Assembly: GCA_965112155.1 (NCBI GenBank)
Contig: OZ218102.1
Strand: one strand, 5' to 3'
From: Podarcis liolepis
Taxonomy: Eukaryota
Length of the DNA: 64,000 nt
Part shown: piece by piece, positions 10,501 through 64,000 of the stretch
Layout: the number at the start of each line of letters is the position of its first letter
Position numbering within the stretch: position 1 is the stretch's first letter
Notes under the pieces: model-generated
The model's input: only the letters and a program-made list of their open reading frames with translations
Database searches by the model: none
Told to the model about the DNA's origin: nothing
Position numbers and translations under genes: made by a program

Positions 10501-12707
10501 ACTTCTAAGTTGCACTGGATATTTAGATGTTTCAGTGAGCTCACAATGTGGAAAGGGTGATTCAGCACTGGTTGAGCAAGTCCTTCATCAATTAACCTCC
10601 TGGAATGAATTTGCACAAGCTGGGCTGGTAGAGGGAGGTAGACTGAAAATGGTAGCTTGCAAACTGAGTTTCTGAAATAAAAGTAAATGGACTGAGTGGT
10701 TTGAAAAACTAGCTCTCTCACTTTGAGTCTGCCAGCTGACATGTTAGCAAGACAAATTCATTCAATAAACTCAAGAAATGTGAGTCCTTTTTTTGGCCTA
10801 AACATTTTAAAGTATGGGAGTGCCATCTTTAGGGAGCTGATATTGTTCAGTCAGTAGTTTGCCCAGAGCAGAGTGCTAGTGGCGCTCAGACTCAGTCCCA
10901 GCAATACTCCGCAAGCCAGAAGTTAAATTTTCAGTCCTATTGGATATAACAGAAGAATCTGTACCTTCTTCAAAATTACATTTAAAGAAAATCACTATTA
11001 ACAACAACCTTGGAGTTTAACAGATAAAAGAGTAGGGTAACAAAGACACTCAGTCGCTTAGAATGTGTTATACTTCCTGGAAAAAGTTTGTAAGCAAGCA
11101 AGCAAGCAAACAAGATGCTATTGAGGCCTATCCCAAAACATTATATTGGGATACACTTGTTGTAACGAGACAGAGGCCAGGGGAGGGGGAGTTTGTATGA
11201 CATATAAAAAATTGGTTCCGAACATGTCTCTTATCTCTCTCCCTTGTTCTGAAAATCTGGTTTCTAGGATCCTATGCACCATCTCATACAGTAAGAAACA
11301 GCTCACAATGACAGGACAGGGGAAAGTTGAGAGAGAAAGAGAGTGTTAATATTTTAAATGCTCCTTAAAGTATGCCGTTATATAATCTCTTAAAACTGAA
11401 TTCATGGCTTAGTCACTGGGAAAGATCCAACAAAAATAAATCATGTTGTTTTCAAGAGAAATATTTTAAGCACATTCTTTTCCCTCCTATAGAAACCAGT
11501 GGTGTTTAATTTTGGTGGGATTGTGTCCGTTAAAGTAAAGCTTCTCTTCTCTGTTTAAAAGAATAATATAGTTCCAAAATAAAGCATTGTAAACATCATA
11601 TGCTATTTTAGTATTGTTCAAATAACGAATATTTTGACTCCATCAACCAAGCAGCTCAAACACTTTACTATCACTGTGATGGAGAAATGCTAGTGTGTCC
11701 AGAAACAGCCAGGCTAAGTGAAAGTTCTGGAAACGTAGTCTTCAAGTAAGTGATCTTGCTTAGTGTCCTTATCAATGTAGAGAGAACCAAGCAGAAATCA
11801 ATCCTGAATTTTACATCTGTCCCTTTAAGTCAGTGTAAATTCTGTAGTGCAGAAAGCATATAGACTGCAATACCAAAGACTTTGGATTATGATCCTGGGT
11901 GTGCTTTAAAGCACTGATGAGCTGAGTTGCCATCTCATGATAGCCTTAGAACTTAGTTTTCCAAACTGAGTTTTTAAAATGTGTATTTTAAGGGAAATAG
12001 CTTGGTTAATTTCAGATCCACACCAAATCTGCACCTCACTCTGCTGCCACGAAGTAAGTAATGGGAAGAGGGAGAAGTCGGCCTTTTCTGACTCTGATTA
12101 TAATTCAAGCCTTCAAAAACTGGGGGAGGAGGCCAAGGCCCTGTTGGGAATGCTACTTGCTTTGGGAGTGCCAATTTCATAGTCCAAACCGGATCATTAC
12201 AAAGTTCAGCAGTGTAATTAATATAAAGCTTCTACTTAGTTGTAAACAAATATGTTTTTATTTGTTGTAGTAACCATTTTGTATGTGTCCCTTGTTGAGG
12301 AAATGTATGAATTGAAATCTGGAGACATAATTTAAATGTGTTCTACTCTGCAGATCCATTCTGCAGATGAAAATAATGCAGGTTACGTAGCGTAGTAAGT
12401 ATGCTGATACAGACTGGCACAATTTTCAGTAGTGTGCCCCCCTTTATTGAATTGTATCAGATAAAATAAACATACTGCAATATAGGACACAAAGAAGAAG
12501 GGACAAAACCTGGTTTCCTGCTGCAGAAATTAGGAACGCCAGGTTTAGCTACTACTGCAATGGTGATTCTTTATGAATATTTTTTCTTTACCCCTAAAAA
12601 GTGAATGTGTGCCGTCCATTCCTGGAGAGATATAGTGTTGCCCTCCATACCATCCTGGAGTTCTTCCCATCTATGAGCCTCTGTTGCAGCCTTCTTTCCA
12701 TTGGCAG

Positions 12708-12710
<3 letters not shown>

Positions 12711-12764
<54 letters not shown>

Positions 12765-13330
12765 ATATCACCCTTCCTCCTGCAGGATTCCAGGGCGGCT
12801 AACAACAACAAGATAAGAAACATAGTAGAACAATTATTATAATAACCAACTCTGTATTGATAATTAAAACATTAACCAGTGTGCAATAAAGCTTTCCCTT
12901 TTAGTTTCCAATTCAGTTATGTTCCAAAGGCCTTGCTACAGAAATATGTTTTTAATTAACAAAGTCAATCAGATTTCATTTGGGAGCTTCACAGATTGGG
13001 GAGCCACAGACAGGAAGGCCCTTCTCCATGTCATTCCCCTATGGGCCATGCCCATGGACAGCAACACAAGCTGGGACTCTCTCCTGTTCTTTACAGGCTG
13101 GCAGGTGTTGAGGAAGGCATTCCTTTCAGTACTGGGTCCCAAGTCATCTAGAACTTGGTACATCATCAGCAACACATTGGATTGCACTTGGTGAATTTGC
13201 TCTTTCCCTTCTCACTGCCCCACATAATAGCCGGACAGCAGTATCTTGCACTACCTGCGGTTTCTGGAGCCATCTTCAAGGGTAGCTCTATGTAGCGTGC
13301 ATTGCAATAGTCCAACCAAGATTCTTGATA
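12711..13330 (-). mobile_element. Old LINE (L2-like) 3' fragment with (ATT)n tail at 12711-12763
   Basis: (ATT)~17 microsatellite followed by a degenerate body resembling other L2-like ends here (~5780-6070, ~63295-63730). Confidence 0.55.
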
Positions 13331-14073
13331 CCAATTTGTTCTAGTTCGGAATAATCATAACTGGTGAAACATTGTAAACCAGATTTTCCTCGTTGTAGTC
13401 AGTCACATTGTATCCTGTTGCTCTTTCCAATCGTTTCATTGCTAGATTATCTAATGTTGCACTCCCTGCAACCATTTCAGTTGGGTTCCAAAGTCTTGCA
13501 GTGGGAGGGATGCCTGATTCTCTCCACCACTGCTGTCCCAAATAGCATGAACCATCCAGTCTGCTGCCATTCAGTACTGATCTTACTGTGAATACACAGG
13601 AAAGGCCCTGGACTCTGGTATTTTCAGTTACCATGACTTCCCTGCACTGAAACCTGTTGCTACGGTTGTGCCACTGCCTCCTGTTCCCTTGCTGCAGTGT
13701 TCAAATGCCCCCTCTAGGATGATCAGCCCCCTTTGTTTGTATGCCAGCTAACCTACTCAGTGCAGTTGATACTTTGGTTGCCAAACCACAAAGCAGTGTT
13801 TAGGTCTGACTGCATTTCAGTACCGTATTGTCTTTCTTCCCCAACCCCCAAGTCTCTCTGCCCTTGCCTGTTCTCCTCCTCCTGCCTTTGCTTAGGTAAT
13901 GTCCCCAATGCTTTTAACTTCACAGCAAAGTTAGAACGCTACGCAGGAAGTTAACTGCCTCGAGTCTTTTAAATTTAAGTAACACACACCAAATAATAAG
14001 CTGTTGGTTGCTTTTTTTTTGTTTTGTTTCTGTTTTGTTGGTGTGGGTATTTCTTTTTCCTGCCTGCAAAGAA

Positions 14074-14317
14074 NNNNNNNNNNNNNNNNNNNNNNNNNNN
14101 NNNNNNNNNNNNNNNNNNNNNNNNNNNNNNNNNNNNNNNNNNNNNNNNNNNNNNNNNNNNNNNNNNNNNNNNNNNNNNNNNNNNNNNNNNNNNNNNNNNN
14201 NNNNNNNNNNNNNNNNNNNNNNNNNNNNNNNNNNNNNNNNNNNNNNNNNNNNNNNNNNNNNNNNNNNNNNNNNNNNNNNNNNNNNNNNNNNNNNNNNNNN
14301 NNNNNNNNNNNNNNNNN
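14074..14317. other. N-run of 244 nt
   Basis: Direct reading. Confidence 1.
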
Positions 14318-14426
14318 TGTTTGTCAGTTTCTCAGTGGAAATTAGAAGCAGTTTTTTTGCAATTCCCTAAGCTGCTGCTCTGTCATATTTTACATAAGCA
14401 CTGGGAAAACGTCTTGTAATTAGTGC

Positions 14427-14639
14427 NNNNNNNNNNNNNNNNNNNNNNNNNNNNNNNNNNNNNNNNNNNNNNNNNNNNNNNNNNNNNNNNNNNNNNNNNN
14501 NNNNNNNNNNNNNNNNNNNNNNNNNNNNNNNNNNNNNNNNNNNNNNNNNNNNNNNNNNNNNNNNNNNNNNNNNNNNNNNNNNNNNNNNNNNNNNNNNNNN
14601 NNNNNNNNNNNNNNNNNNNNNNNNNNNNNNNNNNNNNNN
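14427..14639. other. N-run of 213 nt
   Basis: Direct reading. Confidence 1.
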
Positions 14640-15110
14640 CCCCAATTCTCTTCACTTGGGCCCAACCAAAAATTCTGTTAAGGTGGCTCTGTAAAGATCA
14701 GCATGTTTACCAGCAAAGAACAGAGGCAGCTATAGATGAGGAGTGCAGGGGAGGGTTGGATGAATCTGTTCGACCCTGATACTGACATTGAGGGACGAAT
14801 ACTGCCAAATCTTAATTGGGTCTCAAAGCTAGCACTGGGTGCTGCAGTCGGCTTCCCTGTGGTGGTGATGATGGCAATAACACTTAGCATTTGCATAGAT
14901 AGCCGTCCTGCCCTGACATTGTGTAAGAGCCTTACAACACCTGAGTCCCAGGCCTTCTGCTGATCTTCCGTATGTGCTGGCAGCAAAAGTCAACTGCATC
15001 CATGCAAACAAGCTTGACCTTGCCTAATTGAACGCTATGGCTACAGAGCAGGGTGGAAAACGGAAGGCAAAAGATGAGCGCAAGCAAATAGTATGGAATG
15101 GGAAGGTGGG

Positions 15111-37117: not shown

Positions 37118-37917
37118 GTGAGAATTTATTATTAATTTATTAATTAAATTTCTATCCTGCCTTTCATCCAAGGATCACAGAGCAGTTTACAAATTTAGAG
37201 ATGAAATAGAGATGTCTAGAGTCTCTCTCCCACCCACCACAAACTGACTGTTACCCTGAAGGCTAGAAAATTAGAAATGCCTTACTCTGACAGATCCAGT
37301 GCTTCACTGAGCAAGTAACCTGTTTGCAATTTGGATTTTCAGAAGAAAGAGAGACTCAATTTTCCCCATTCAGCATTACAAATATAAAATGCAAGAAGAA
37401 CAGATACTAGTAGTATTTAAAGGAGGAGATATTAAAATACATTGCAGGTTCTGCAGACAACCACTTATAGTAGCAATCAAATTTGCTTTCCTGCTGGCCT
37501 CATTTGGATAAGTGGAAGATAGAATTTGCTTATAAAAGTCCCATTAACAGGACCTAAAATAAAAGACATGCTTGGTGAGGTAAACACTACTTGGATTCAC
37601 CAAATTATACATGTTATTACTATTACTGAAGTCATATCACAGTACAATACAGTGTAACGTTTATCATTCCTTCCATTATAATTGATGTCACCTCTTTAGT
37701 TTTAATTTATCTTTATGTTAACCATACACTTCCCATTAAGATCTGTTATCTTCATATCAACCATACTACCTCCAGCCAACACAAGAGAAAACAGCAAAGC
37801 CAAGTTGCAAAACCAGATGCACATCTATTTTTTTCTCCATGAAATAGATTGATCAGCTGAGATGGATTAATAACTCAGTTTTTTAATATAATGTAGTGCT
37901 TGCACTTACTTTTTAAT

Positions 37918-38124
37918 AAAAAAAATTCCTTCCAGTAGCACCTTAAAGACCAACTAAGTTAGTTCTTGGTATGAGCTTTCGTGTGCAAGCACACTTCTTC
38001 AGACTTCTTCACACTTCTTGCACACGAAAGCTCATACCAAGAACTAACTTAGTTGGTCTTTAAGGTGCTACTGGAAGGAATTTTTTTGTTTTGACTATAG
38101 CAGACCAACACGGCTACCTATCTG
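37918..38124 (-). mobile_element. Palindromic Penelope-like retroelement fragment, copy 1 (BTRC intron 12)
   Basis: Perfect 71-bp inverted arms 37919-37989 / 38017-38087; 12-bp TSD TTACTTTTTAAT at 37906 and 38125; hammerhead core on the minus strand at 37967-38002. Confidence 0.85.
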
Positions 38125-38172
38125 TTACTTTTTAATGAAACTCTGGTTCTTTCTTCTTTTTCGTGCCACCAG

Positions 38173-39505: not shown

Positions 39506-39667
39506 GAGCACTCCGGCAGAGTTTTCCGGCTCCAGTTTGACGAATTTCAAATAGTTAGCAGCTCGCATGATGATACCATCCTCATCTGGGACTTCCTGAA
39601 TGATCCAGCTACCCAAGCAGAATCTAACCGCTCCCCTTCCAGAACATACACTTACATCTCCAGATAA
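39506..39667 (+). CDS. BTRC: BTRC last coding exon: [53 protein letters not shown]-stop (exon continues as UTR to 39699)
   Basis: atccag|GAG; TAA at 39665-39667; characteristic C-terminus [11 protein letters not shown]; donor CAG|gtaaa at 39700. Confidence 0.97.
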
Positions 39668-40456
39668 ATAGCACTACACTGTACCTCACACTTGCACAGG
39701 TAAAAAAACAACAACAACACGTTAATGCAGCAGGCAGGCTGCATGGTGGATAGACATGATTTGTGAATGGAGGTTTTGCTGGTTCCTTAACTGAGAGTAT
39801 TACTGAAAGCCACTGCAGATAAAGGGAAGTAGGGTGACAAGGGTGGTTCTGTCCTTTGGCTTCTCAGAACTTCCTTGCCTGTAGGAGCATTAGGAAGAAA
39901 TGGCCTTGTAACTGCAGTGGACCAAGAATGAATTAATTTAAATGAGCACAAGCTGAGGAGAGAACGAAAATGAAGTTTGTAATGGATAACCACTTCTTAC
40001 TCTAGCACTCTACCTGGGAGGTGCAGTTTTCCTACCTCAGCCAAGGATCAGAAACAAGTGATCAGGAAACAGGAAGGAATGTTGTGCTCCTCAAGTGCTC
40101 AACCGTCACCCGTACTTTTGAAACATCAGAGTGCTCCATCCAGTTTCCTGGGCACTCCAATCAGCCCCTTGCCACTTCTCAGCACTACTGCCACCTGCAA
40201 CAGAAACAATGTGGAGGTGCTGTCACGGTCTCTCCCCAAGATAATTTGGGTTTTCCCTCCTTGCCACCGCCACCTGAACGTTAACAATAACTTGGGAAAC
40301 AGATCACATACACAGGCTGAGGGTTCACACACACACCCCAACAAAGATGTATCCATTTTGAAAAATCTAGATTGCCTATAATCATCTTTTGACGGTTTAT
40401 AAAATTTCACTAGCAAAAATGTGGATGACAAATAGTTCTTGTCTTTTCTTTCCTAG

Positions 40457-42278
40457 GACTCATTTAAGCTGCGATATTTAAATTACCTGCCAATGCCAGG
40501 GCAAAAGAATTATCCACATAACAGATATAACTGGAGAGAGAGGCTCTCAGACACACTTCTGGAACCAAGTCAGCGCGTGGTTGATCTCGGACAAGGTCTT
40601 CTCAGCGCAGCTGACTGCTCAAGTGCTGCTATATCAGAAGATTCCTTTTATCTTTCCTGAATGACTGATGTGTTACACCTCCCCTCTTCACACTCTTCTC
40701 CCTCCCATCTCCTCTCTTGTCCTGAGTGCAGATGTCCTATAAATATATTTAACATGTTGCCAGAATTTCTTGCTTCGCTCTTAAGCAGAAAAATCCTTGC
40801 CACCATTCGTTCCCATGGGAGAATCACCTTGTGATGTGTTGGTAGGTGGGGAACAGCAGGCTGATGCCTCTACCTTTGGGGACTTGTGATGAGGACGCAT
40901 CTACTTTTTTGTAGATGGGCCTTGGACTTTAAAGGAGGGCCAACTTGATGCCAAATGAAGGCCCCGGTGGCCAGAAACCAGTCGGGAGATAATGATGAAG
41001 TCTAAATAATTTCAGCTAAGCCCTCTGCAGTTAGTCACTTGTCTAAAATCTTCATCCAGCGGATGCCAGTAAATGAAAGGTGAAGCTTTCTTCTGCCAAA
41101 GTCTAATTTACTTAAGAGGTGAGACTTACTGGTGACAGCATTGGTAATGGGCAGTATTTTCTGCTGTCAAAGTATATGAATATATTTCCATGTTCTTCTT
41201 CCTTCCCTCCCCACATGGTGCACTATTGCACCTCTGCTCCTCGCCCTCCCCCCGGAGGAAGAGTATGGTATCAACAGTAGCAACCACCCTATTCCCTCAG
41301 CACTCAGCGAAGACTTCAGACTTTTCCTGTTAACCTGATTGTGTCATTATTCGTTGGCTGGCATTTGTGCTTTGTTGCCATACTCTGTTGGAAGGGAACT
41401 CCTGAAAGAACGGGAGATTCTGATGACTCCACATCTTAGTCTGTAAGCTGCAAGGTCATTTTGTGGTGGAAGGGATAATAGTAGAGGAGAACAGTGGAGG
41501 GGTCTTAGCTAGGGACAGAAAAGACCAAAAGCAAACCTGTCCTGTGGTACTACATAACTCCCCATCATTGTGTGGGAATAGCATAACGCTTGTCTCCTAC
41601 AAGGAAGGGTTAACTTCTTTGGCCAAGATTTAAATTTGGAAGTTAGGGGGAAAGAGCTTCACTTTTATGCTGCTAAGCAGGTCCCCTCTGTGGCCTGTCT
41701 CCTCTTCATTCACTTGGCGGTAGCAATTTCCCCACAGTGAAGTTAGGTATTTGCCACAGTGGGCTCAGAAAGTCAGTGGAAACGAAGAATAAACGGGCAG
41801 CTGGTTCTGTCCTGTAGTTCTCTACTCTGGTTCAAAAGTGAGAGTTTTGTGCAAGTGCTCTGCCTTACCCATGGATTCTCAGCCTGCGTATCATCCAGGG
41901 CTGCATTAGCACCAAAGGCATAGTCTGCTTTTCTTTTTAAGTGTTTCTTTGAGCAAAGGCAAAGGAAGTCACAGCTGCAGCTAGAAGGCTTTCCTTAACT
42001 GTGCTATCCTTCAGAGTATGAAAAAAGGTTGCCTTGCACACTGAATTGCAAAGCAAGATGGAAAATGAGAGACAGATTGCCACATACTAGTTCTTCATTA
42101 TGTTTGAAAGCTCACTGTCACCCCAGCCCTGTTTCATCACTATTACTCGGATTCCATTTATACTTTGTAGTACAGTATTGACAATGTGTGGAACAGGACT
42201 GTAGATCCACTACAACTGGAGCATCAACAGGTTATTTTCTCTTGCTCGCTGGCAGAGCTGTGAGATCAGTATTTTCTC

Positions 42279-42318
<40 letters not shown>

Positions 42319-45300
42319 GGAAGTGTCTTTGGCGGTGGCTCTGTCAAGCACATAGGGGGGTTGTTTCTGTTATGTGGAGTTGGAGATCAGATAAGAGACA
42401 ATGTCATTTCTGGTGCAGCCTTTCCTTATTGTCATAACCCTTCTCTTCCCTGCTGTTGTTCCCAAACACACCTAACTGCTTTGGGGCTTTAAAACAAACA
42501 AACATGGTACTGGAGAATTAATTCTAATGTATAAAACCTGTCACCAAGGGGAAAGTAGTGAGGTTTTTTCCTGTTAAGTCATTTCAAGGAAGAAGCTGAA
42601 ATGGTGCTTTTCCAATAGAAGGAGGGCCCACCATGCCTTGGCATGGAGAAAGGCCACTGCAAAAAGCAAGACCTCCTCCCTCCAACTTCTACCCCACTCA
42701 AGTTGCATGAAGTTTACAGCCTTCAGCCTACTGCATCTCCAACCATTTGGGGAGGGCTTTGGTCTTCACTGGAAGAGAAAGGCTCTAAAGCATCTCCGTA
42801 CATGGACTTTTCAAGGGTTAATTTGATATGGGTAATTCCAAATGGATCTGATGCGAAAGCTGAAAAGGGAATATTAATGACGTTTCTGAAGAGGGGCTGA
42901 GCCCTAATATCTTTCTTTGCAATGAAATGCTAACTTGGAATTGCTAATCACAAATGGCCTTGCCTTTCACTGGTGTGGAGCGGAGAGCTCCACAGGCAGG
43001 TATTTACAGAAGGAAAAGCAGCGCACAACTGGCTCTGAGCCATAGGAGAGAACCTTGCTGTAAAACTGTGCATTTCTAACCCTAGACCAATTGAGTAGTT
43101 TAAATAACATAAGCTCAGCCTGGGCACCCAGCTGAATACGTAGCATAGGAACCCCCCCCCCCTGCAGCAACGCTAAGCCACTTTCACCGTTCCTGATTAG
43201 GCTTCTGAACAAGTTGGACCTTTTGATGACTATTTTAAGACTTTATGCTTGCTTCTGAAATTAGAAGATGGGAAAGAGACCCTGCTGCCGCCAGCAAAAC
43301 ACAAACCTATTTTGACTTCATAAAAGAAAAGGAGAGTGGTACATATGTGTATTCCCCTTTGGGTTCATATATGAATCTGCCAATTTGAACTCATGTGATT
43401 GGTACCTCTCCAAATGAGGTCTTCTGGTCCTGGGGGTCTTTTCCCTCCCATGCTATGCTCAGACATGTTTAGGAGTTAACAGTGTTATCAAAAGAAGTGA
43501 CTACTTGTGTGCTGTTTTCTGCTGTTGCTTCATACCAGGAAGGAACTATTCTATATAGGAGGGTAGAAGGAACATTCAGTAGTTTTTAGTTACAAAGGCT
43601 TATACAGCTTGCATGCCTTCCCAAATTCTCCTGGATTCGGGAAGAAAGTATTGGGGAAACTCTAGGTGGCACAAGGCACATATATGGTCCCTAAGTGGCC
43701 TACATATATGATGCATTTTAACAATGCTGAGCTGTGCCCTAATCCATTCCTCTTCCTTTAATCAAGTGGTCAAATTAGGGGGGTTGGGGGGGTTTCCCTG
43801 AAGAAGGAAGCCTTTTGGATTTTTCCTCAAGCTGCACTTCTGGGTAAATCTCCTTTTTCTGAAATCAATCTCACATATCCAGCTGAGAGTGAGCCAACTG
43901 GTTGTGGAAGCATAATTCTCACTTTAGGCCATCATGTCCTGGGCAGTTTCCACTTGGGTTTAAATGCTGCATCCTGGGAACTGCATGCTCTGGAAGCAAC
44001 ACTTCTGTATTGTAAGTCACCCTCTGCATCTTTCTGATTTATAACATGGCTGCTGGAATAAAACATGGGTGCAGCCCATGCTTTATTTATAGGCTCCCCT
44101 TCAGAATTGTGATTGACTAGTCCTCAATCTGCTTGTTAAAATCAGAGCTCTTTTCAGGACTGCAGCATCCTATATCATGGGCATAGTTATACGTTATATC
44201 TTTGGTCTGCAAAATGCAATTGGGCTGTAGCACACGAATTTAGGTCTTCTAAAGTGGCAGTAATCGTACAGAGATTTACAATTAGTGACCTTTCAGTGAT
44301 GCAAGGTATGCTCAGGATGTAGACCTTTGACAAATCAATAATAACCTTCACAGTGGAACATAACTATGCGGTTAGCCCCACTAAGAAACCATTATTACTT
44401 GGCTCTAGAGCTCATGCAAATTCACTGATCTACAGACACCATTCTAGATGCAGAAATGCTTTCCCTAAAGCGCTACTCAGCTTTTCTGGAGAAAGTATAA
44501 GTAGTTGTCTGTTCTGTAGATCTACTTGTGTACATTAAAAAACTAAAATTCACTGTTCAATGCAAATCAGTAAAACACCCAAATTCACTTAATTTGTATT
44601 GATTTGCATGCTTTCTTCTGAACTCTGCATTTGGGCACTTGCACAAGAGCAAATGGACAATGAAAGTTTAGACAGGCAAGAGGGTTGTGAAAAGCTGTAT
44701 GAGTGTGAGCGAAACAAGGTTGCAAGGGTAGGCTTCAAGAAACTAAAGCTTCAGGTTTTGACCTGAGCATTTCACAATGGTTCTTGCATGATTTCAAATG
44801 TATTTTCACTATAATGAGGGCCAGAAACTTGCTTTTTAAAAAAGGGAAGCTGGGATTCTCAGGAATCTAATATGCATAAATCATTATTGTGCACGCTGCC
44901 CGATCTATGATGCCCAAAGCAGATGCTTTAGCAGAAAGGCACAGAGGACCATTTTCTAAATACTCCATGTTTATTTTCTCCATGTTATTGGCTGCCTTTG
45001 CTGGTTAAAGCAGAGCTTTTTTTCCTCCTTATCTCTCTGGGACTAAAATGGTCATAGATGGTCAAAAAAATTCACTTCCAAATTATGAATTTAGGTTGAG
45101 TAGGGAAAAGTGACGTAGCTGTTGATCCATACAAGAGGAAATGCTCACAATATAAATTGCTAATTCTAATATCTTTTTGTACAGCACGTTAGTGTGGGGG
45201 TTGCAAGTTTAAAATCTGGCAAAATTGAATTGGCTCCTATGACAATTTATTCTCTTTAACAGCTTGCTGTTCCTTTGAAAGCAAACACCCACTAGACCAG

Positions 45301-45590
45301 TGCATGCCTTTAGCAACTGCAGGAAGCTCAGATAACTGTGGGCACAGAAGGTTAAAAAGAAAGCACATGATCTCTTATTTTTATTTGTAACTCTGCTCTC
45401 TTTGTTCTCTAGATTCTAAAAGTAATGAGTGCTTTGGAATTTTTGTGATTATGTTCTGGTGATGTGTAGCTAACGTACTAATGTTCACTTGAGCTAGGGT
45501 CATGGTAATGTGTGGTTTTTTTAAGAAAAAATATTTTAACTGTTCAGAAGATAACTTAAATACAATTATAAGATTAAGCTGTGAACCTGC
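40457..45590 (+). other. BTRC: BTRC non-coding terminal exon (3' UTR); 5' boundary solid, 3' end uncertain
   Basis: Acceptor ttttctttcctag|GACTCATTTAAGCTGCGATATTTAA resembles the recalled start of the mammalian BTRC last exon. Candidate polyA signals AATAAA 41788 and 44057, ATTAAA 44534; U/GU-rich end-like region near 45560-45610. Confidence 0.6.
42281..42316. repeat. (GT)18 microsatellite in the BTRC 3' UTR
   Basis: Direct reading. Confidence 0.95.
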
Positions 45591-46042
45591 TGAGTGTGTG
45601 TGTTTTCTTTAATCTTAAATGAATGTTTGTTTCCCAGGCACTATGTCAATGAATGAACTAGTGCAGAACTTCAACCTCATCTCATTAAGTGCATTGACTG
45701 TCATTCATTCACACTGGGGCAGCTTATTCATAAAATCTCAGCGTACTTTATAAGAGTTCCAGTCATTAATGATATCTTCCATCTAAAGCACTGTAAATTG
45801 ATCAAAACGTGTGACAGCAAAAGGAGTGCATTTATAAAGGGGAAATGGATCCTAAATGGATCCTGCAAGATATTTGAGTGAAAAACTGTGACCTTCCCTT
45901 ATTTAGAAGATGCACAGAATGCAGTTATTTAAATGTTTTTGGTTCAAAGAAGATAACATACAGAATAATTCAAATTCTACCTTCTTACTGGACCCACCAT
46001 GTTGCTTTGCCACCTTCACCTCTGGCTAACTTTTCCCATTAG

Positions 46043-46236
46043 ATAGGTAGCCGTGTTGGTCTGCCATAGTCAAAATAAAAAAATTCCTTCTAGTAGCACC
46101 TTAAAGACCAACTAAGTTAGTTCTTGGTATGAGCTTTCGTGTGCATGGTATCTGAAGAAGTGTGCATGCACACGAAAGCTCATACCAAGAACTAACTTAG
46201 TTGGTCTTTAAGGTGCTACTAGAAGGAATTTTTTTA
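46043..46236 (+). mobile_element. Palindromic Penelope-like retroelement fragment, copy 2
   Basis: Perfect 76-bp inverted arms 46072-46147 / 46165-46240; TSD TTTTCCCATTAG at 46031 and 46237; near-identical to copy 1 in opposite orientation. Confidence 0.85.
46146..46187 (+). ncRNA. Minimal type I hammerhead ribozyme motif (Penelope-associated type)
   Basis: UGGUAU-CUGAAGA-A-GUGUG(CAUG)CACAC-GAA-AGCU-C-AUACCA: 6-bp stem I, 5-bp stem II, palindromic AGCU stem III, CUC site with predicted cleavage after 46181. Confidence 0.8.
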
Positions 46237-46485
46237 TTTTCCCATTAGGTATATTTTTATTTGTGCTTAAGGCCAGTCCATTGTTTCCCTGACCTGGATT
46301 TTCTTTACAATTAGAAAGTTTGCTCTCCTAGCAGTTCACTTAGTCCACTGAAACTGGCCTTTCAGAATCTTGGTTTAAAAAAAGAGAAAATTCAATTAAC
46401 ACGCTACACATGAATCCAACAAAACAAAATACTTTAGGTGGTTTGGACAGAACCAAGGATGGAGCTCCACACTCCTGGCCGCACA

Positions 46486-46624
46486 TCATAGAATTATAGA
46501 GTCAGAAGGGACCACAAGGGTCATTAACCCAACCCCCTGCAATGCAGGAATCTTTAGCTCAATATGGGCCTTATCCTCACAACTTTGAGATTAGGAGTTT
46601 CATGCTCTACCGACTGAGCTAGCC
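46486..46624 (-). mobile_element. tRNA-Lys-derived SINE with CR1 3' tail
   Basis: Minus strand begins GGCTAGCTCAGTCGGTAGAGCATGAAACTCCTAATCTC (tRNA-Lys-like) and ends in a CR1-type ...ATTCTATGA tail. Confidence 0.8.
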
Positions 46625-49060
46625 AAGCCTCGTCTTGGCTTCTGCTGCTCTCTTTTGCCTGCCTTGCATTTTCAATAAGACTAGTGTGTGTCACCCTATG
46701 TTCTAGATGTCACTGTTCCATATATTCCAACAGACCTGCCTACTACCTTCTCCATGATTTTCCTTCAGGAAGGCTGGTGGAAAAACAGGTGGAAAACATA
46801 GGCACCTTGGAGGCACCCTCAAAACAGCAGGGCCTATATTAAGTAAAATCTGTTCTGTGTATCATAACATCCTTGTCCAACTATGCAAAATGCCTGTAAA
46901 TTGTGTGGCGCTTTGTGACGTTTCACAGGGAGAGAAAATACAATCTATGGTTGCAGAGCAAAACCGTGAACCAAGGGCAGGGAGGCGGGAAATGGTTATT
47001 TTCCAATTAGAAATCAAACTCCACAGATTGCTTGTTTGCTGGATTTAACAAATGTTTTAGACTGCAAAAAACCCAAAACTATCCAAGTAGCATTTCATTT
47101 AAGAAATAATATAAAAATTTAACAAAACAAATTCTAGACATTTCCAAACATTTGAGGACAAATTAACCACAATACTAAACTTGAAAGAAACTGAATGAAG
47201 AAAGGGGGTTCTGGCATCACCAGTTAAGGAAACCCTTCAAAACACCATAAAAGTTGCTAGCCCTCAAAATTATTTACTAGCTTGCTAGGGGCTGGTAGAG
47301 AAGTATATATGTGCTGCCATTTCTCTAAATTTTACAGCATTGCTTGCTAGTAGTGCCTTCACTTTTTACTTGTGTATTTGGAAGGTTTGTTTGTCCCTAT
47401 TTTGTTCTCAGGCTACTGGGCCCCTCACAGGGCACTGCCTGTTGCTCTCCCCTCTTTTCACCTCCTATTCCTAATACGCTAAAGGACATCTTTCCACTAG
47501 GTTTCCAGCTCAGCGTGGACATTCTCCTTTGCATGACTGGCTTTCTAGGTTGCATCTACATTTTATCTTTTGGCACCATGCCTTGAGGAAAGGGACTATG
47601 TCTGGACTATGTCAAGTAGTATGTTCTGGGCAGTTACCTGCTGAGGTCCTCTGCTTCACTCAGTCGGCCACCCAGGATGCTGTTTTGAGGAGCAGTGAGA
47701 AAACTGAAATCCTAAGGTGGCTTTGTTTAGGATTCCCAACTCCAATGATAAAATGTGCTATGACAAAGGTAGCGTATATTTCACATAAATACTATGCTGG
47801 GCTGGAAAGACTAGGCTTGCTGCATCACTTCCCCTCCTGCCCCTGCCCAAATCCAATGATCTACCAACGAACCAGGTCCAAAAGGCATATGGTTAAAATT
47901 CAAAAACTGGGAGCCTTCTGGTGCTTTCTGTACAGAGGGATTCATTTTCAGTACCAGAACTGAAATGAGCCTCAAGCCATTTCACACAAAAATCCACTCC
48001 GGATGAGCTTTCTTCATTTCAGCTGCCTCATTGAGGTGAACAAAGTTTTGGGAGTTGAAAGCATTTGCCGATCTGCAGTAGCTCACCCAGAGATTGTCCC
48101 TAGATTCTGATCAACTTTCTTTCCAATCCTGCTATGAGATGCCCATGCATTGGAGCTGTCCTTAATCATGCATTGTTGTACTAAAATTGTAGAGGGTGTC
48201 TTTAAATTGTCCTGAGTCTCCTTGCTCTCAACCACCTTCCAAATCTGCTCTGGACAAAGCTATGGGCATGCATCTCATGTACTTTTGCATCATGATGCAC
48301 ATCCAATGTTGAGAATCCCTTGAGCCAGGACAATGCATTGACACAACAGGTTTATGAGACTTGCTTGAAGTCTCATGTTACACACTAGCAATGGTGGGTG
48401 TGATGTCAGAATGCAAAAGTTTGGGTTCTGCTCAAAAAACATTGCACAGATGAGTGTAATGTCATCATGCAGGGAAAATTGAAATTTGAAAATGAAGTGC
48501 CTCTTCTGAAATTGGCCCACAATGCGAGAAGCATGTCAACTGGGAGTTGAAAGGCATTATGGATGATTGATCCTGGAACCTGGAATAGCACTCAGTTACT
48601 AGTGTGGTACTGAAGAGAAGCAAGATACTTGTGCATCTTGGCCCAAATGCTGGTATACCAGGTAGGTGGGAGAGCTAGAAGTGCTGCAAATTCTTTTTCT
48701 GGGGCAGCAAGAAATATCCAAGCTTGGCAGAATGCCCGGTTTCCGCAAAACAAATTCCATCCACCAACTTAGAAGAATACAAAAGTGTTCTTTCATGGCT
48801 AGAGTGAAGGCTTGGGAAGGGGTGGCCACCCAGTCTAGGAAAAAATGATTCTTTTGCTGCCAAGAGTTTTCAGTCTTGTGCCTTGTGGGCTGCCTCAGCC
48901 TCACAAGCTCTCCCAAAAATGAAGACTTCTGACCGTAAATTGAATAACTGCGGCCGGCTCTTTGCTGCTCTTGCCCTCCTCTTGCCAACTCAGTTCATTA
49001 CCAAACTCTGAAGGTCTCTGCTTCACCTGCTTTACTGCCTCATTTTCCAAAAGGGAAGTA

Positions 49061-57937: not shown

Positions 57938-58205
57938 GTAAGATTCAGACAGAAAGTGCACACACTGACCACCATAGAGCCTTCCATCCTCTGCTGAGCT
58001 AGAATGCCCCTCTCTCCACTTCCTGGCCTGATACACCATGTTGAACTGACCCCTTTCTGTTCCTCCCAGGACCTCACTTAGGTTGATACTGTCTCCCACA
58101 GACATCACAAGACTCCAAATAACCTGTGGTTAAAATCTGATGATGGTGAACACAGATCTAGAACTCTCACAATTTTATTGCATGTTGTGTCTTCCTCTAC
58201 TGCAG

Positions 58206-58366
58206 CACATCAAAGCCTTCTATAACACAACATGGTTTCGGCGCTATGGAGTGGGCCTGGCTCCAGCACGGCTCACTCTCATGTACTCACTAACTGTCTC
58301 GGTCTTTGCCCTGGGAGGCCTGGTGGGATCCCTGCCTGTGGGAGTACTGGTAACCCAATATGGAAG
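58206..58366 (+). CDS. SLC2A15: GLUT class II exon 3 (loop 1 with N-glycosylation sequon NTT, TM2): HIKAFYNTTWFRRYG...GVLVTQYGR
   Basis: ctgcag|CAC...AG|gtaag; 161 bp. Confidence 0.92.
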
Positions 58367-59660
58367 GTAAGGGCAGGGCCAAAAACAGAGTGAATTTCCA
58401 ATTCATAGCCAAGATGTGTTGACAGATACACCACCCATGGTGGCACTAAGTTCCACATAGCTTAGCACCCATGTCCCTCCGGCCAACCCCTAGCCCTGCT
58501 GCAATTGCTCCTTGCCACTATTGCCTGCTCTCCTGTCCCTTCTAAGCCAATGAGCAGTGACAAAAGAGGAAAGAGAAAGAGCAGAAGAAGAAGCCTTAGA
58601 CCACATTGACCCATCTCCCACTGGACAGATGTATGGACTGTGGCCAAAGGGAAGGTGCAAGCAAAAGTGCAGTGGCAATAGCAGTGAGGAGGATGTAGGT
58701 CTTCTCTGAGAGGAGGCCTGTAGAAGGTATCATGCCCAAGTCCCCCCACAAATGTTACAAAACACACATTAATCCCCGTAGAGTTTAGACAGCAGGAATG
58801 TACTACTACGTAACACGTTTTGGCACGCAAGCCAGAAACTGCCTCTCTCTTCCCATTGAAAGCTGCAGCACCCATGGATGTGACCAATTCTTTAGCCTTC
58901 AACCTCATGACCATTAAGGACAGCGCTAAAATTGAGCTGGATAATGTGATTAAGGCAGGAATGATCCTAGAATTCAAACAGTTAAAAGATCAAAGAGGTT
59001 ACAACAGTGCAAGATACGGACTAGACTGACTTTTGGCTACACTGGTGAGACATTGGATGCTGCCTTATTCCATCCAGCTCAGTTTTGTCTACACTGCCTG
59101 CAGCATAGGCTTCAGGCAAGGCTCACTCCCCATCTCTTAGCAGGAGATGCTGGGAACTGAACCTGTGACTCTCTGAAGGCAAAGATAGACGATAGGTATA
59201 AAAACTGTCAGTTAATTTATGGTCCTCTTTGACATCTCAGTTGAGACATGTTCTTTAAAAGTATTTATTTTGTTAGGGCATCAGGAATGAACCGAATCAC
59301 TTGGAAGCACGGTTATTCTTTACTGTGGGTTCTTCTGAATATGTTTTAAGCTGACACTTTAACTGTCCCTGAAGCTCATTGGAAACATATTTTGTTAAAG
59401 AGGGTGTATAAATAATAGAAATAAATGTAGAACAGTTGTGTCAGCTGGGATAACGCTATGATTGTCAAAACAGAGCTACTCCTTATGCCTGCCTCTCAAC
59501 TCACATCCCAGATTTAATTTGAGTTGAGGCTACTTGCCAAATCTCAACTCTACCATCAGAACAATTTCCATATGCTCTAGCAAACAACCGTGTCTCTGTT
59601 TAAACTCTGGATATCACAACAATTAATCCAGCTGAAAGGTTGCTCAGTGATCATCTACAT

Positions 59661-59787
59661 CAGGGATGCAGAATCTGTGGCCCTCCAGACATTGCTGGAC
59701 TCTAAGTTCCATCAGCCTCAGTCAGCATAGCCAATGGCTAGGGATGCTGGAAGTTATAGTTTAGTAACGTCTGAAGGGCCATCTCTG
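59661..59787. mobile_element. hAT MITE related to 53442-53563
   Basis: CAGGGATG ... CATCTCTG; perfect TSD ATCTACAT at 59653 and 59788. Confidence 0.82.
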
Positions 59788-59958
59788 ATCTACATCCCAT
59801 TTGGCTAGTCAGTCCACCTCTGACTACAGGCCTTAGGATCTGGCAAAGCAATTCTAATGGGGAAAGGAGTTAGAAGAACCAAGGAAGGAAAGGGGCAGAG
59901 GGGCAATTATGGGGATGCCAGATGGGCATTTTGTTGCAACAGAGAGCAGAGTGTTCAG

Positions 59959-60161
59959 CAGGGCTGGCCCAAGATATTTTGGCACCTGAGGTGAACCAGA
60001 AAATGGCGCCTCTCTCCCTGGTAGGGAAGAATGGCTGAGTGAATATCTACCTCAGGAGCAAGGAAGTAAGATCTACATTGGGATCAGCTGCCCCTATGGA
60101 TCCTGCCATGGTGCCACTTGAGGCAGTCACCTCACCTTGCCTCATGAGTGAGCCAGCCTTG
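59959..60161. mobile_element. Old hAT-like MITE
   Basis: CAGGGCTGGCCC ... GAGCCAGCCTTG; degenerate TSD GTGTTCAG/GTCCTCAG. Confidence 0.6.
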
Positions 60162-60216
60162 GTCCTCAGGGAGTGGGGATGGAACAAAATGTTTTATTTG
60201 GAACTATTTGTAATCA

Positions 60217-60338
60217 AAGAGGTTGGATGACCATCTGTCATGTATGTTCTAGTTGAGATTCCTGCATTGCAGGGGATTGGATTAGATGACCCTCTGTTCC
60301 CTTCTACCGCTACAATTCTATGGTTCCATGATTCAATG
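60217..60338 (+). mobile_element. CR1 3' terminal fragment just upstream of the exon 4 acceptor
   Basis: GATTCCTGCATTGCAGGGGATTGGATTAGATGACC ... ATTCTATG-type tail. Confidence 0.8.
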
Positions 60339-60370
60339 AAAGCATCTAAAATAAATGACCTCTCTACCAG

Positions 60371-60495
60371 GAATGGTACCTTGGTCCGTAGCAACGTCCT
60401 CGTCTTCCTGGCTGGCATGTTAATGGGATTCAGTCGCTACTTGGAATCACCTGAAATGGTCATATTCGGACGCTTCATAACCGGCGTTCACTCTG
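60371..60495 (+). CDS. SLC2A15: GLUT class II exon 4 (TM3-TM4): NGTLVRSNVLVFLAGMLMGFSRYLESPEMVIFGRFITGVHS
   Basis: taccag|G...G|gtaag; 125 bp; EM-xx-GRF-xG motif. Confidence 0.92.
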
Positions 60496-61041
60496 GTAAG
60501 AGAAATGTCTCGGCCCAGACTTCCTCACTTTGTGTGTGGGTCTCCTCCTTCTCTAGTGAAGTTCCTCCTCCTCCTCTAGGGTCCGGGTAATGCACAGCCA
60601 CTGAAAGCTACGTATTCATCTCAAAAAGCGTATCTGTACTGTATATATAGATTATTAGAGCCACTGCTGCCTCTCTTGCTCATGACGTTCCACATTGATT
60701 TGAAAAGCAAAAGAATGTGCTTTTTAATTTAGAGAGTTAGAAATGAGTTACCACCTACAGTGAGTGAGTGGGAACATTCAGAAATTATTGAATGTGGATT
60801 CATTGCATGCACTTTCTGAATCAGGCCATTGCCCATAAAATCTCGTTCCACAATAAACTAATTGCTAAGATGACACATTATTCTGCCTCTTTGTAGCAAC
60901 AGAACTTATATGACTACTTTGCGGGAAGTTAATATAGATTTAGTTGTTCCTGAAGATATTAACCCTTAGATATCTGAAGCTGCTGGCTGATTGCCATGTC
61001 ATTCACCACCTTCCTTCCCTTTTCTTTCCTCTTCCTACCAG

Positions 61042-61187
61042 GGATCTGTCTCAGTGTGGTGCCCATGTACCTGGGAGAAATTGCCCCTAAGAACCTGCGT
61101 GGATTCTTGGGCCTTGTACCAAGCATTTTCATCTGTCTGGGGGTCTTCTCTGCCCAAGTCCTGGGCCTTCCAGAGCTACTGGGAGAG
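61042..61187 (+). CDS. SLC2A15: GLUT class II exon 5: [49 protein letters not shown]
   Basis: taccag|GG...GAG|gtaaa; 146 bp; PMYLGE and LRG sugar-porter motifs. Confidence 0.93.
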
Positions 61188-62171
61188 GTAAATGCCCAGG
61201 CCTGCCACTCTCTGCATAGAATGCCCAGGCCTGCTAGCTTCGCTGCTGTCAGTATGTAAACTGATGACAGGAGGGGAAGGCCACCACTGGGAGCAGCTGA
61301 GAGTCCTAGAAGAGTGTGCTAGCAAAAGGTGGTGTAGTAATGAACATGTTGGACTTTGGATGGGGAGATGTGAAATTACAGACATTGAGTTCACTGAATC
61401 ACCTAAGGCAAATCACTGTCTGAGTCTAGCCTACCTAACAGACTTGTCCTCCAATCCTCAAGCTCACACTGTTGCTAAATACTACTCTAGCAGATGATAC
61501 CATCACCCCTGCTGTCAAAAAGAGCAACAAAGCTGCATTTCATTCCACTGCCCCTACTAGTTTAGAAAAGGCAGACGGGCTTTTGCCATCTTGAATCCAA
61601 ACATGTTTTGTTTTTTTAATGCGCTTTCCACTTCTTCAAATGGTGAGAAGTTCTAGGATAATGACTTATCCATCTTTTATTCTCTATGGGAAGAAGAGAT
61701 GGGTGGTGAGTTAATATGTTTCTGCTATATTGATTTACAAATATTCAAGTTGACCATAGATGGAGGTGAACATGGGGCATAGATGGAGGGCTTCCCCTCC
61801 TAGAGGTGTCTCCAGTTATTTCCTAGCCATTCCCAGCCATTTTAGCTCTAATTTCCCTAACAGAAGATATGCCTGCTGGTATGCTTGGCCTCTTGGCCAT
61901 TAAGGAACCTTAAGAACTCATTCTGCCTCCTTTAACATTCACAAATGCTAATCCCCACAGCAGAAATCAGATAGCAAGACCATAACAATGTTATAAGAAA
62001 TCTGGCCATTATACAGGAGAAAAGGTCTCTGTCATAGAGAAAAGAGGAGGCATCAGGGATTTTGTTGGAGAAAGTGTGGGAAGACAGATGTGGTGTAGGA
62101 GGGGAGTATCTTGCTCAGGTCATTCTTGTTTCTATCCATGCACCCACCACACCCAAAAATAATGCAATACC

Positions 62172-62386
62172 TAGGTTTGCTACACATTCGGAATTTCCTA
62201 GACATATCTGGAATACTGCATTCGGCAGCAGCATCTGGACAGAAATTGTGAAAATATCTGGGAAAATCCGGACATATGGCAGTCCATGTCGGCAGTGTTA
62301 TTTGCCGATTTCCCATAAAAACAGCTTAAAAACAGAAAAAAAAAGTTCAACGACTTTGGCCAAAAGTTTGAAATATGGCAACCCTA
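62172..62386. mobile_element. hAT (Tip100-like) MITE
   Basis: TIRs TAGGTTTGCTACA / TATGGCAACCCTA; TSD GCAATACC/GCTATACC. Confidence 0.75.
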
Positions 62387-62575
62387 GCTATACCCTTCAG
62401 GACTAGGCTTTCCTATATAACTCTGTGGGGAGAAAGATGGAGAAAGGGCTTCAGAAAAGGAGCCGTTAATCTATCAAGTCCTTTGTGTTTCACAACCTGC
62501 ATAAAGTATCCTCTTTGCCAGAAAGAAGCTGCAAAAACCCCTCTCATCCGGGGGGGGGGGCTCTCTCTCTCCTAG

Positions 62576-62708
62576 GATCCCTACTGGCCTCTCTTCCTCT
62601 CGCTGGTGGTTGTCCCTGCCTTCCTGCAGCTGGTCCTCCTGCACTGGTTTCCAGAAAGCCCCCGTTATCTTCTTATTGAGAAGAATAATGTCCTTGGAGC
62701 TACTGATG
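62576..62708 (+). CDS. SLC2A15: GLUT class II exon 6 (TM6): DPYWPLFLSLVVVPAFLQLVLLHWFPESPRYLLIEKNNVLGATD
   Basis: tcctag|GAT...G|gtaag; 133 bp; PESPRYL motif. Confidence 0.93.
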
Positions 62709-62882
62709 GTAAGAGAAGTGCAAGGATCTTCGTTCCTTACCGCTTGGAAATATTTTAGGGGTGGCCATGAGAGGCCAGAAAAGTTTGCTATTGTGTGGCA
62801 GAGCTACCCACAGCCTACAGGCCTCCAGCTGGCCATCCCTGTCCTGGATACTTTTCTCAGCCGCGTTGTCTTAACCCTACAG

Positions 62883-63070
62883 CGCTGCGTTGGTTCCTGG
62901 GCAAGTACGACGTGCAGGACGTAATTGAAGAGATGCAAGAGGAGAAGCGCTCGCTGGCTTCTGTGGAGACGGTGTCTGTGTGGCACCTGCTCTTGGATCG
63001 CTCTGTGCGATGGCAAGTTCTCTCCGTCGTGGTGATCAACATGGGCATGCAGCTCTCAGGGATTGACGCG
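62883..63070 (+). CDS. SLC2A15: GLUT class II exon 7 (intracellular helices, TM7): ALRWFLGKYDVQDVIEEMQEEKRS...VVINMGMQLSGIDA; gene continues beyond the window
   Basis: ctacag|CG...GCG|gtaag; 188 bp; QLSG motif. Confidence 0.93.
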
Positions 63071-64000
63071 GTAAGGGCTGCAGGGTCGATCACGCCTGCC
63101 CCAAGGCCGCTGGGCTGGCCTGCGCCTCCTGCACCTTCATTCAAGCACAACAGTATTCCAAACTCGCTCTCTTCCGTTTAAACCTCTGGGTGTATTTCCC
63201 CCATGTATCTGCAGCACCTTCCCTGCTTGGAGCCAAAGAACTCTGAGCGAGGTGCCAAAAGTCAAGACTTAAGTTGCTCCTCCCAAATCATGAGTATTTA
63301 TTTAAATTTCCGTACTGCCTTTCCTCCGAAAATGGAGGCAAATTGCAAAACAGAAAAACAATGCATAAATAAATAAATAAATCTCTAAAACCTTGTAAAA
63401 CAGTCATATCCCCTCACAGCTAGTAATACCAAGTTTGCAGGAAACAGTGCTTTGCAGCCATCAAATGCCTGGAGGGACAGGAATGTTTTAAAATTCCACT
63501 AGAATGTTAATAGTGAGGAACTACCACCATGGAGACCCTGCCACACGCAGCGCCCAGCACTGCCAACAGGCTGAGATGGTTGACATTCTTGAGTACTTTG
63601 GTCCCAAGCCTTTTAGGGTTTTGTAAGCTGGTTCCAGGCTTTGTGCACCTTGAAAAGAGCCTTACTGACACCCACTCTGCTTGCAAAAGGAGGGAGGGAG
63701 AAGGGTTGCGCATGTACTTTTCACTCTAGCCCTGCCTACCACTGATATGCAGTCCTTAACAGATTACTCCCAAGCAAATACAGCCCATAGCAAAAAAAAG
63801 GCTCCCCACTCATGTTTTACATCATGAATTAAAATGATTTAGTATAATTCATGGTAGAGCATAATTAATCCCGGGAGGGAGGGGTTGGGCGATTAAAAAT
63901 GAGGCACTCATATCTTAATAAAAGTGCTGTTAGTACCAGCATACAAATGGTTGCCATAAGCAGCCCAAAAAAAGGTGATTTTTCTTATTTTACAAGTGTG

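Follow-up and report, generated by a model that had tools for sequence, protein, structure and literature searches.

The gene next to the site of interest is BTRC, on the + strand. A beta-TrCP D domain is encoded within the window (the whole 64,000-nucleotide stretch of DNA analysed here), and two exons score higher against FBXW1A than against FBXW11, the last coding exon with 173 versus 158 bits and the F-box exon with 126 versus 109 bits, which bears out the original prediction in its naming of the gene. The 3′ end of BTRC consists of the following features.

39506..39667, + strand: last coding exon of BTRC, with the stop codon TAA at 39665-39667
40457..45585, + strand: inferred non-coding last exon (3′ UTR) of BTRC, its acceptor read from the sequence and its RNA cover examined from 43000 on
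45559..45564, + strand: AATACA, probably the poly(A) signal of BTRC; RNA cover stops at 45578-45585, with a GT/T-rich tract behind

An apparent intron lies 3′ of the stop codon, with a donor near 39700 and an acceptor near 40456 as judged from sequence only, and the 3′ UTR exon is ~5.1 kb long. The AATACA at 45559 we take to be a variant poly(A) hexamer. In all four RNA runs compared over 43000-48500, whose donors may or may not carry the insertion described below, BTRC RNA ends at ~45,580. The stranded reads of run X23 all share one strand as far as the bin that ends at 45575, and depth is zero over 45576-45943 in X23 and X21 (of the two raw RNA runs, ~12% and ~6% was sampled). The contigs of X18 and X15, two runs presumed to be RNA, stop at 45578 and 45585. 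Thin contigs of X15 over 46346-48235, at a depth of ~2.5-4.7 versus 51 in the UTR, may be read-through or DNA. We also looked for an opposite-strand gene reading across the site; the next gene to appear is a sugar transporter, downstream of BTRC and in the same orientation (exons 58134-63178, +; Pfam Sugar_tr in 4/4 fragments, one over the cut-off). A tRNA-like head at 46556-46628 on the - strand (Rfam tRNA, 29 bits) lies in a repeat at ~46490-46630 that is probably a tRNA-derived SINE, and the X18 and X15 RNA contigs suggest that this repeat differs or is absent in other individuals.

Beyond the BTRC RNA end, on the + strand, lies a 42-nt hammerhead motif. The original prediction had described a complete core in the correct order, and every part was found in place when read from the sequence.

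46146..46187, + strand: hammerhead motif, minimal type I, in the pseudo-LTR (pLTR) of a Penelope-like element (PLE); predicted cut after C 46181
46146-46151, + strand: 5′ strand of stem I, TGGTAT
46152-46158, + strand: core box CTGAAGA
46159, + strand: extra A
46160-46164 / 46169-46173, + strand: stem II, GTGTG / CACAC, with the loop CATG at 46165-46168
46174-46176, + strand: core GAA
46177-46180, + strand: palindrome AGCT, in place of stem III
46181, + strand: C17, after which the cut is predicted
46182-46187, + strand: 3′ strand of stem I, ATACCA

The catalytic boxes CUGANGA, GAAA and UH occur in type I order within 46146-46187. The extra nucleotide and the G10.1-C11.1 pair of minimal hammerheads (min-HHR) are A 46159 and G 46160 with C 46173, and the palindromic 15.2-16.2 positions, without a stable helix III, are the AGCT at 46177-46180. 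The description of stem I as UGGUAU/AUACCA stands in that all six pairs are present, but the two outer pairs were contributed by an inversion junction; the native hammerhead part is 46148-46185, with a stem I of 4 bp that falls within the short helix I (4-5 bp) of the class, and the window copy reaches 6 bp via the junction. Among 60 cores collected, the bases upstream of the core are GTGTAT in 33 and TGGTAT in 5, and among the ORF-linked loci (L032-L044) they are GTGTAT in 14 of 16, ATGTAT in the other two and TGGTAT in none. Since the ORF-linked copies have a 4-bp native stem I, the 6-bp stem is a junction accident.

A type I descriptor search of both strands of the window, one of the checks proposed at the outset, returned a single match, which is the motif itself. 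The same descriptor gave 0.04 matches per window in 100 dinucleotide-resampled windows, and none of these windows held a match with a stem II of at least 5 bp; the motif at 46146-46187 is above chance expectation. The Rfam hammerhead models, likewise proposed as a check, gave no match in the window at the gathering score, and at E up to 10 the 19 Rfam matches over 45500-46800 included no hammerhead, being hairpin look-alikes far below the gathering score. The motif starts 561 nt beyond the BTRC RNA end and so lies outside the apparent BTRC mRNA, ~560 nt downstream, as seen with RNA from relatives that may or may not carry the insertion described below. Of its earlier placement on the BTRC sense strand near or just past the gene's 3′ end, the strand and the position past the mRNA end are retained, and a position in the 3′ UTR is not.

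The motif is part of a 206-bp insertion, inverted head to head and flanked by a 12-bp TSD, that spans 46043-46236 between the TSD copies. A second insertion of the same PLE family lies within BTRC.

46031..46042, + strand: left copy of the TSD, TTTTCCCATTAG, 12 bp
46041..46147, - strand: left arm, an inverted pLTR fragment of 107 nt, 99-100% identical to ORF-linked copies
46148..46240, + strand: right arm, 93 nt of pLTR, 5′-truncated and including the hammerhead, with 99-100% identity to ORF-linked copies
46072..46240, + strand: inverted repeat built by both arms, a perfect 76 bp (46072-46147 / 46165-46240) with a 17-nt spacer
46237..46248, + strand: right copy of the TSD, 12 bp
37915..38125, - strand: second insertion of the family, in a BTRC intron, head-to-head and independent, with a 12-nt TSD by eye

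The right arm starts 4 nt ahead of the core and stops 5 nt short of the element's ATG, without the tail, and its last 4 nt are shared with the TSD. The left arm begins in loop II, lacks the CUGA core and, beyond the tail, reaches about nt +26 of the ORF. The repeat between the arms is perfect and takes in the 3′ half of the motif, as had been noted. The insertion at 37915-38125 carries its core on the antisense strand, with a loop II variant and most of the 5′ strand of stem I lost; short GAAGAAGT repeats lie at its junction, and its hairpin is predicted at -133.9 kcal/mol.

The insertion at 46043-46236 is not fixed among the labelled relatives, because the site is empty in two of the four DNA runs: a single contig joins 46030 to 46237 with one TSD copy in X4 (organism A) and in X5 (organism C), and flank-to-element contigs mark a filled site in X1, which is labelled organism A and may be the source sample, and in X3 (organism B). 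The summed contig depth over the repeat does not equal copy number and was left out of the evidence. A host ribozyme would be expected inside the mature transcript and fixed across individuals and relatives; here the cover of BTRC RNA ends at 45578-45585 in 4/4 runs from ungenotyped donors, and half of the DNA runs lack the insertion. The proposal of a self-cleaving unit at the 3′ end of BTRC is not supported on either count.

The element is abundant in this genome. The 34-nt hammerhead core occurs in 11,672 unchanged copies genome-wide, and the core pattern with the stem II letters left free occurs in 14,608, with 0 for the reversed control in each case. A genome search with 46146-46240 gave 563 candidates, of which 40 were scored and yielded 41 places 100% identical over 93-95 nt. 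In longer copies the end of an ORF lies upstream of the hammerhead, and the eight such copies examined gave open frames of 504-700 aa. Both ORF proteins scanned have RVT_1 and GIY-YIG domains over the Pfam cut-offs (46.8 and 24.6 bits in L037), which is the single ORF with RT and C-terminal GIY-YIG of EN+ PLEs, with the proviso that the longest frame (700 aa) is 5′-truncated. In L038 the core lies 187 nt past the ORF stop and the predicted cut 63 nt ahead of the next ATG, a spacing that places the hammerhead in a pseudo-LTR. By eye, a CNKPRCQLC linker separates the RT and GIY-YIG domains and a CxxC lies between the IY and YIG boxes, matching the CX2-5CxxC RT-EN linker and the CCHH in EN of Neptune; on these motifs, the lizard family would be a Neptune-type PLE. 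The family is without a name in the open-licence literature that we searched on Penelope, Podarcis and hammerheads. The host has the look of a lizard, with a possible likeness of its repeats to those of lacertids.

We surveyed loci L001-L044, which are best BLAST matches rather than a random sample, and dropped four duplicates (L003, which is the window, L005, L025 and L031) to leave 40 independent loci. Head-to-head inverted pairs make up 21 of the 40. In 18 of them, one arm stops between ATG+26 and +32 and its partner between ATG-13 and +2; the tail is on one arm only in 18, and a flanking duplicate of 10-16 nt, mostly 12-13 nt, is present in 19. Together with partial tandem pLTRs in L006, L012 and L022, this is the PLE combination of inverted or tandem pLTRs, one-ended tail and short TSD, and both window insertions obey the arm-end pattern of the family. 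Inspection by eye of the first 100 copies listed for the pattern that leaves stem II letters free showed 85 with the consensus and 15 altered in stem or loop II; 10 of the 15 lose a pair, three are changed in the loop only, two pair by G-U and none is doubly compensated. This variation is as expected of neutral decay, and the lack of stem II covariation in the 100 listed copies means that this genome gives no signal of selection for the fold.

We note some features of the junctions. At those of L001, L007, L011, L017, L018 and L026, brief stretches of the core have been copied again (GAAGAA-type repeats), which suggests that the template slipped more than once during joining. Many inversion junctions in the family fall within or just 5′ of the hammerhead, and stem II with its loop (46160-46173) is a perfect 14-nt palindrome; the two observations together raise the possibility that RT halts or switches templates at this structure.

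For the isolated motif, a fold with stems I and II is predicted at a penalty (ddG) of 1.5 kcal/mol, and in native context the penalty is 3.3-4.2 kcal/mol. In the whole insertion the prediction is reversed: the 76-bp hairpin buries the 3′ half of the hammerhead and beats the hammerhead-compatible ensemble by 36.6 kcal/mol, with a probability of stem II of ~1e-12, and in a nascent RNA ending at 46187 it is still ahead by a predicted 22.6 kcal/mol. That ribozyme and hairpin are mutually exclusive folds is supported. Of the two consequences drawn from this exclusivity, silencing is favoured and a switch is not, since a switch calls for two folds of like energy and the hairpin is ahead by ~37 kcal/mol. 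Removal of the 5′ part changes the balance, as the folding penalty falls to 1-5 kcal/mol once trimming has moved the 5′ end to 46140 or later and is still 7-10 kcal/mol with the 5′ end at 46136-46138. An active dimer is predicted to be disfavoured, at -20.9 kcal/mol for the double-hammerhead dimer, -23.4 for two monomers and -38.8 for a dimer formed via the palindromic stem II without stem III. Published relatives point the same way in the text available to us: PLE minimal hammerheads failed to cleave as monomers and cleaved little as dimers (PMC4209133), a review gives very low rates for minimal hammerheads even as dimers (PMC6765202), and the anole PLE hammerhead cleaves only with the element protein (PMC11167929). 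RNA ends at 46181/46182, which the original prediction had named as a sign of cleavage, form no cluster among many reads of the family, a weak negative given that standard libraries lose such ends.

We are highly confident that the locus holds a recent, polymorphic, 206-bp insertion of a Neptune-type PLE with a standard minimal hammerhead that is likely inert at this site. The likely inertness follows from the end of BTRC RNA ~560 nt upstream, the pairing with the other arm and the missing stem III, and the fallback reading of the original prediction, an inert TE relic, is the one that fits best. Counting against inertness are the thin X15 contigs beyond 46346, the stem I of 6 bp that the junction gives to this copy, and the low folding penalty of the isolated motif. 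By analogy with a related element we infer a two-start-site, two-strand mechanism for the insertion. The GIY-YIG nuclease of the element would nick both strands 12 nt apart, and each 3′ end would prime RT on the element RNA from one of its two internal starts, which lie near ATG-5 and near ATG+26 to +30. Synthesis of both cDNAs would end early, close to the hammerhead, and joining them head to head would leave the inverted pair of arms and the TSD of 12 bp. In a read-through transcript, synthesis would reach the upstream arm first, and that arm would pair over 76 bp with the 3′ half of the motif, which, without stem III, would in addition need a partner copy or the element protein, to judge from its published relatives. 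In an intact element the same motif likely processes the element's own RNA.

A more active part for the motif can be imagined in carriers of the insertion, in which it would cut BTRC read-through RNA during transcription or help to terminate it, after removal of the arm by a 5′-3′ exonuclease or with a partner RNA or element protein bound. It has the sense orientation, and its distance from the RNA end, 596 nt, falls within the usual read-through zone past a poly(A) site; trimming to 46140 or beyond brings the folding penalty down to the low values above, and thousands of identical copies are potential partners. In reporters, hammerheads engineered downstream of a poly(A) site do cut during transcription, as the available text of PMC2288634 describes, but these were efficient ribozymes. 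We consider this role very unlikely, since the arm would have to be trimmed to ~6 nt from the motif, the double-hammerhead dimer is less stable in prediction than either two monomers or the stem II dimer, the allele is polymorphic and, more weakly, no read ends cluster at the cut site. Somewhat less improbable, although we still hold it decidedly unlikely, is that sense copies are cut in trans, through pairing with abundant element RNA or with the aid of the element protein, and so become segregating, allele-specific cleavage or termination sites in host nascent transcripts; this presumes a still-spreading PLE family with ~12,000-15,000 intact hammerheads.

Effects other than catalysis were also weighed. 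The inverted arm carries a canonical AATAAA on the BTRC strand (46074-46079), ~500 nt behind the weak AATACA, and this could be an alternative poly(A) site in carriers. That any effect of the insertion comes from this signal, upstream of the ribozyme, or from the hairpin as a dsRNA substrate, would accord with the perfect 76-bp duplex predicted and with the canonical hexamer; we regard it as extremely unlikely, as unique RNA cover is lacking over 45576-45943 in the raw runs, whose donors may lack the insertion, and the letter differences in RNA reflect other copies, editing being indistinguishable from copy variation. That the BTRC 3′ UTR has here domesticated a ribozyme with a regulatory role, or a hairpin/ribozyme switch, has almost no chance of being the correct reading, despite the sense orientation beside BTRC and the two mutually exclusive folds. 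Transcript place, fixation and energy balance were each tested and each speaks against it: the motif is outside the mRNA, it is missing from 2/4 DNA runs and the folds are ~37 kcal/mol apart. It is also identical to thousands of TE copies, and the same hairpin geometry recurs in about half of the sampled insertions. Our search of the open-licence literature found nothing on BTRC together with a hammerhead ribozyme.

For BTRC, the motif of this probably inert PLE insertion is almost surely of no consequence. Its value lies in the family, a young, uniform and insertion-polymorphic Neptune-type PLE with >11,000 identical ribozymes, which would allow testing of whether PLE minimal hammerheads cut in vivo. 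The inverted insertions appear to record, in the genome, the use of two RT start sites by a Neptune-type element. Were cutting in trans to prove true, segregating insertions would add allele-specific cleavage or termination sites to host RNA.

Domesticated genic hammerheads of amniotes are intronic or in 3′ UTRs, have a full stem III and are conserved inside transcripts. Like them, the window motif places a hammerhead core beside a host gene in the sense orientation, but it is without stem III, polymorphic and outside the mRNA. The label "retrozyme" was rejected as well, since the retrozymes in the available text of a bioRxiv preprint are tandem arrays and the window copy is not tandem.

The closest match is with the min-HHR of metazoan PLEs (Cervera and de la Pena 2014, PMC4209133), as the original prediction had recognized from the palindromic AGCU in place of stem III. 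In the text available, these share with our motif the core boxes, the extra nucleotide between 9 and 10.1, G10.1-C11.1, the palindromic 15.2-16.2, the absence of loop 3, the short helix I and the location in the pLTR, and they likewise come as thousands of truncated copies and as pairs on opposite strands; min-HHR are reported there in Neptune PLEs and in turtles and snakes. The lizard family differs from those sets in the uniformity of its copies, and its helix II has 5 bp and a 4-nt loop, versus 7-8 bp in the Schistosoma set. By every testable feature the motif is a PLE minimal hammerhead, and any self-cleavage would, to go by its kin, take place as a dimer or with a helper protein.

The anatomy of Neptune and other PLEs (Craig et al. 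2021, PMC8557442; Arkhipova et al. 2013, PMC3846280) is shared in the order RT, Cys linker, GIY-YIG with CCHH, and the Cys linker is present in Neptune and absent in Penelope/Poseidon according to the parts of these reports at hand. The same text describes 5′ truncation, an inverted 5′-truncated copy and short TSDs, all shared by the lizard insertions, along with a 30-40-bp tail at one end only and head-to-head as the commonest arrangement. Unlike the copies described there, the window copy keeps just ~100 nt per arm. The PAc element of the green anole (Frangieh et al. 2024, PMC11167929) is likewise a squamate PLE with a hammerhead in the pLTR, and RT on its RNA likewise starts at two internal sites, which set the tail, with both strands cut and extended; two RT starts and two-strand extension were shown in vitro in the text available, which likewise describes no RNA-seq ends at the cut site. 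PAc is in the Poseidon clade, with an ORF that starts in stem II and a cut 26 nt into the ORF, whereas the lizard PLE has Neptune's CX2-5CxxC linker and an ATG 63 nt after the cut. The two-start-site, two-strand priming of anole Poseidon in vitro would thus be mirrored in a second PLE clade. The hammerhead is of a kind already known, and this lizard family is a further member of the PLE minimal hammerheads.
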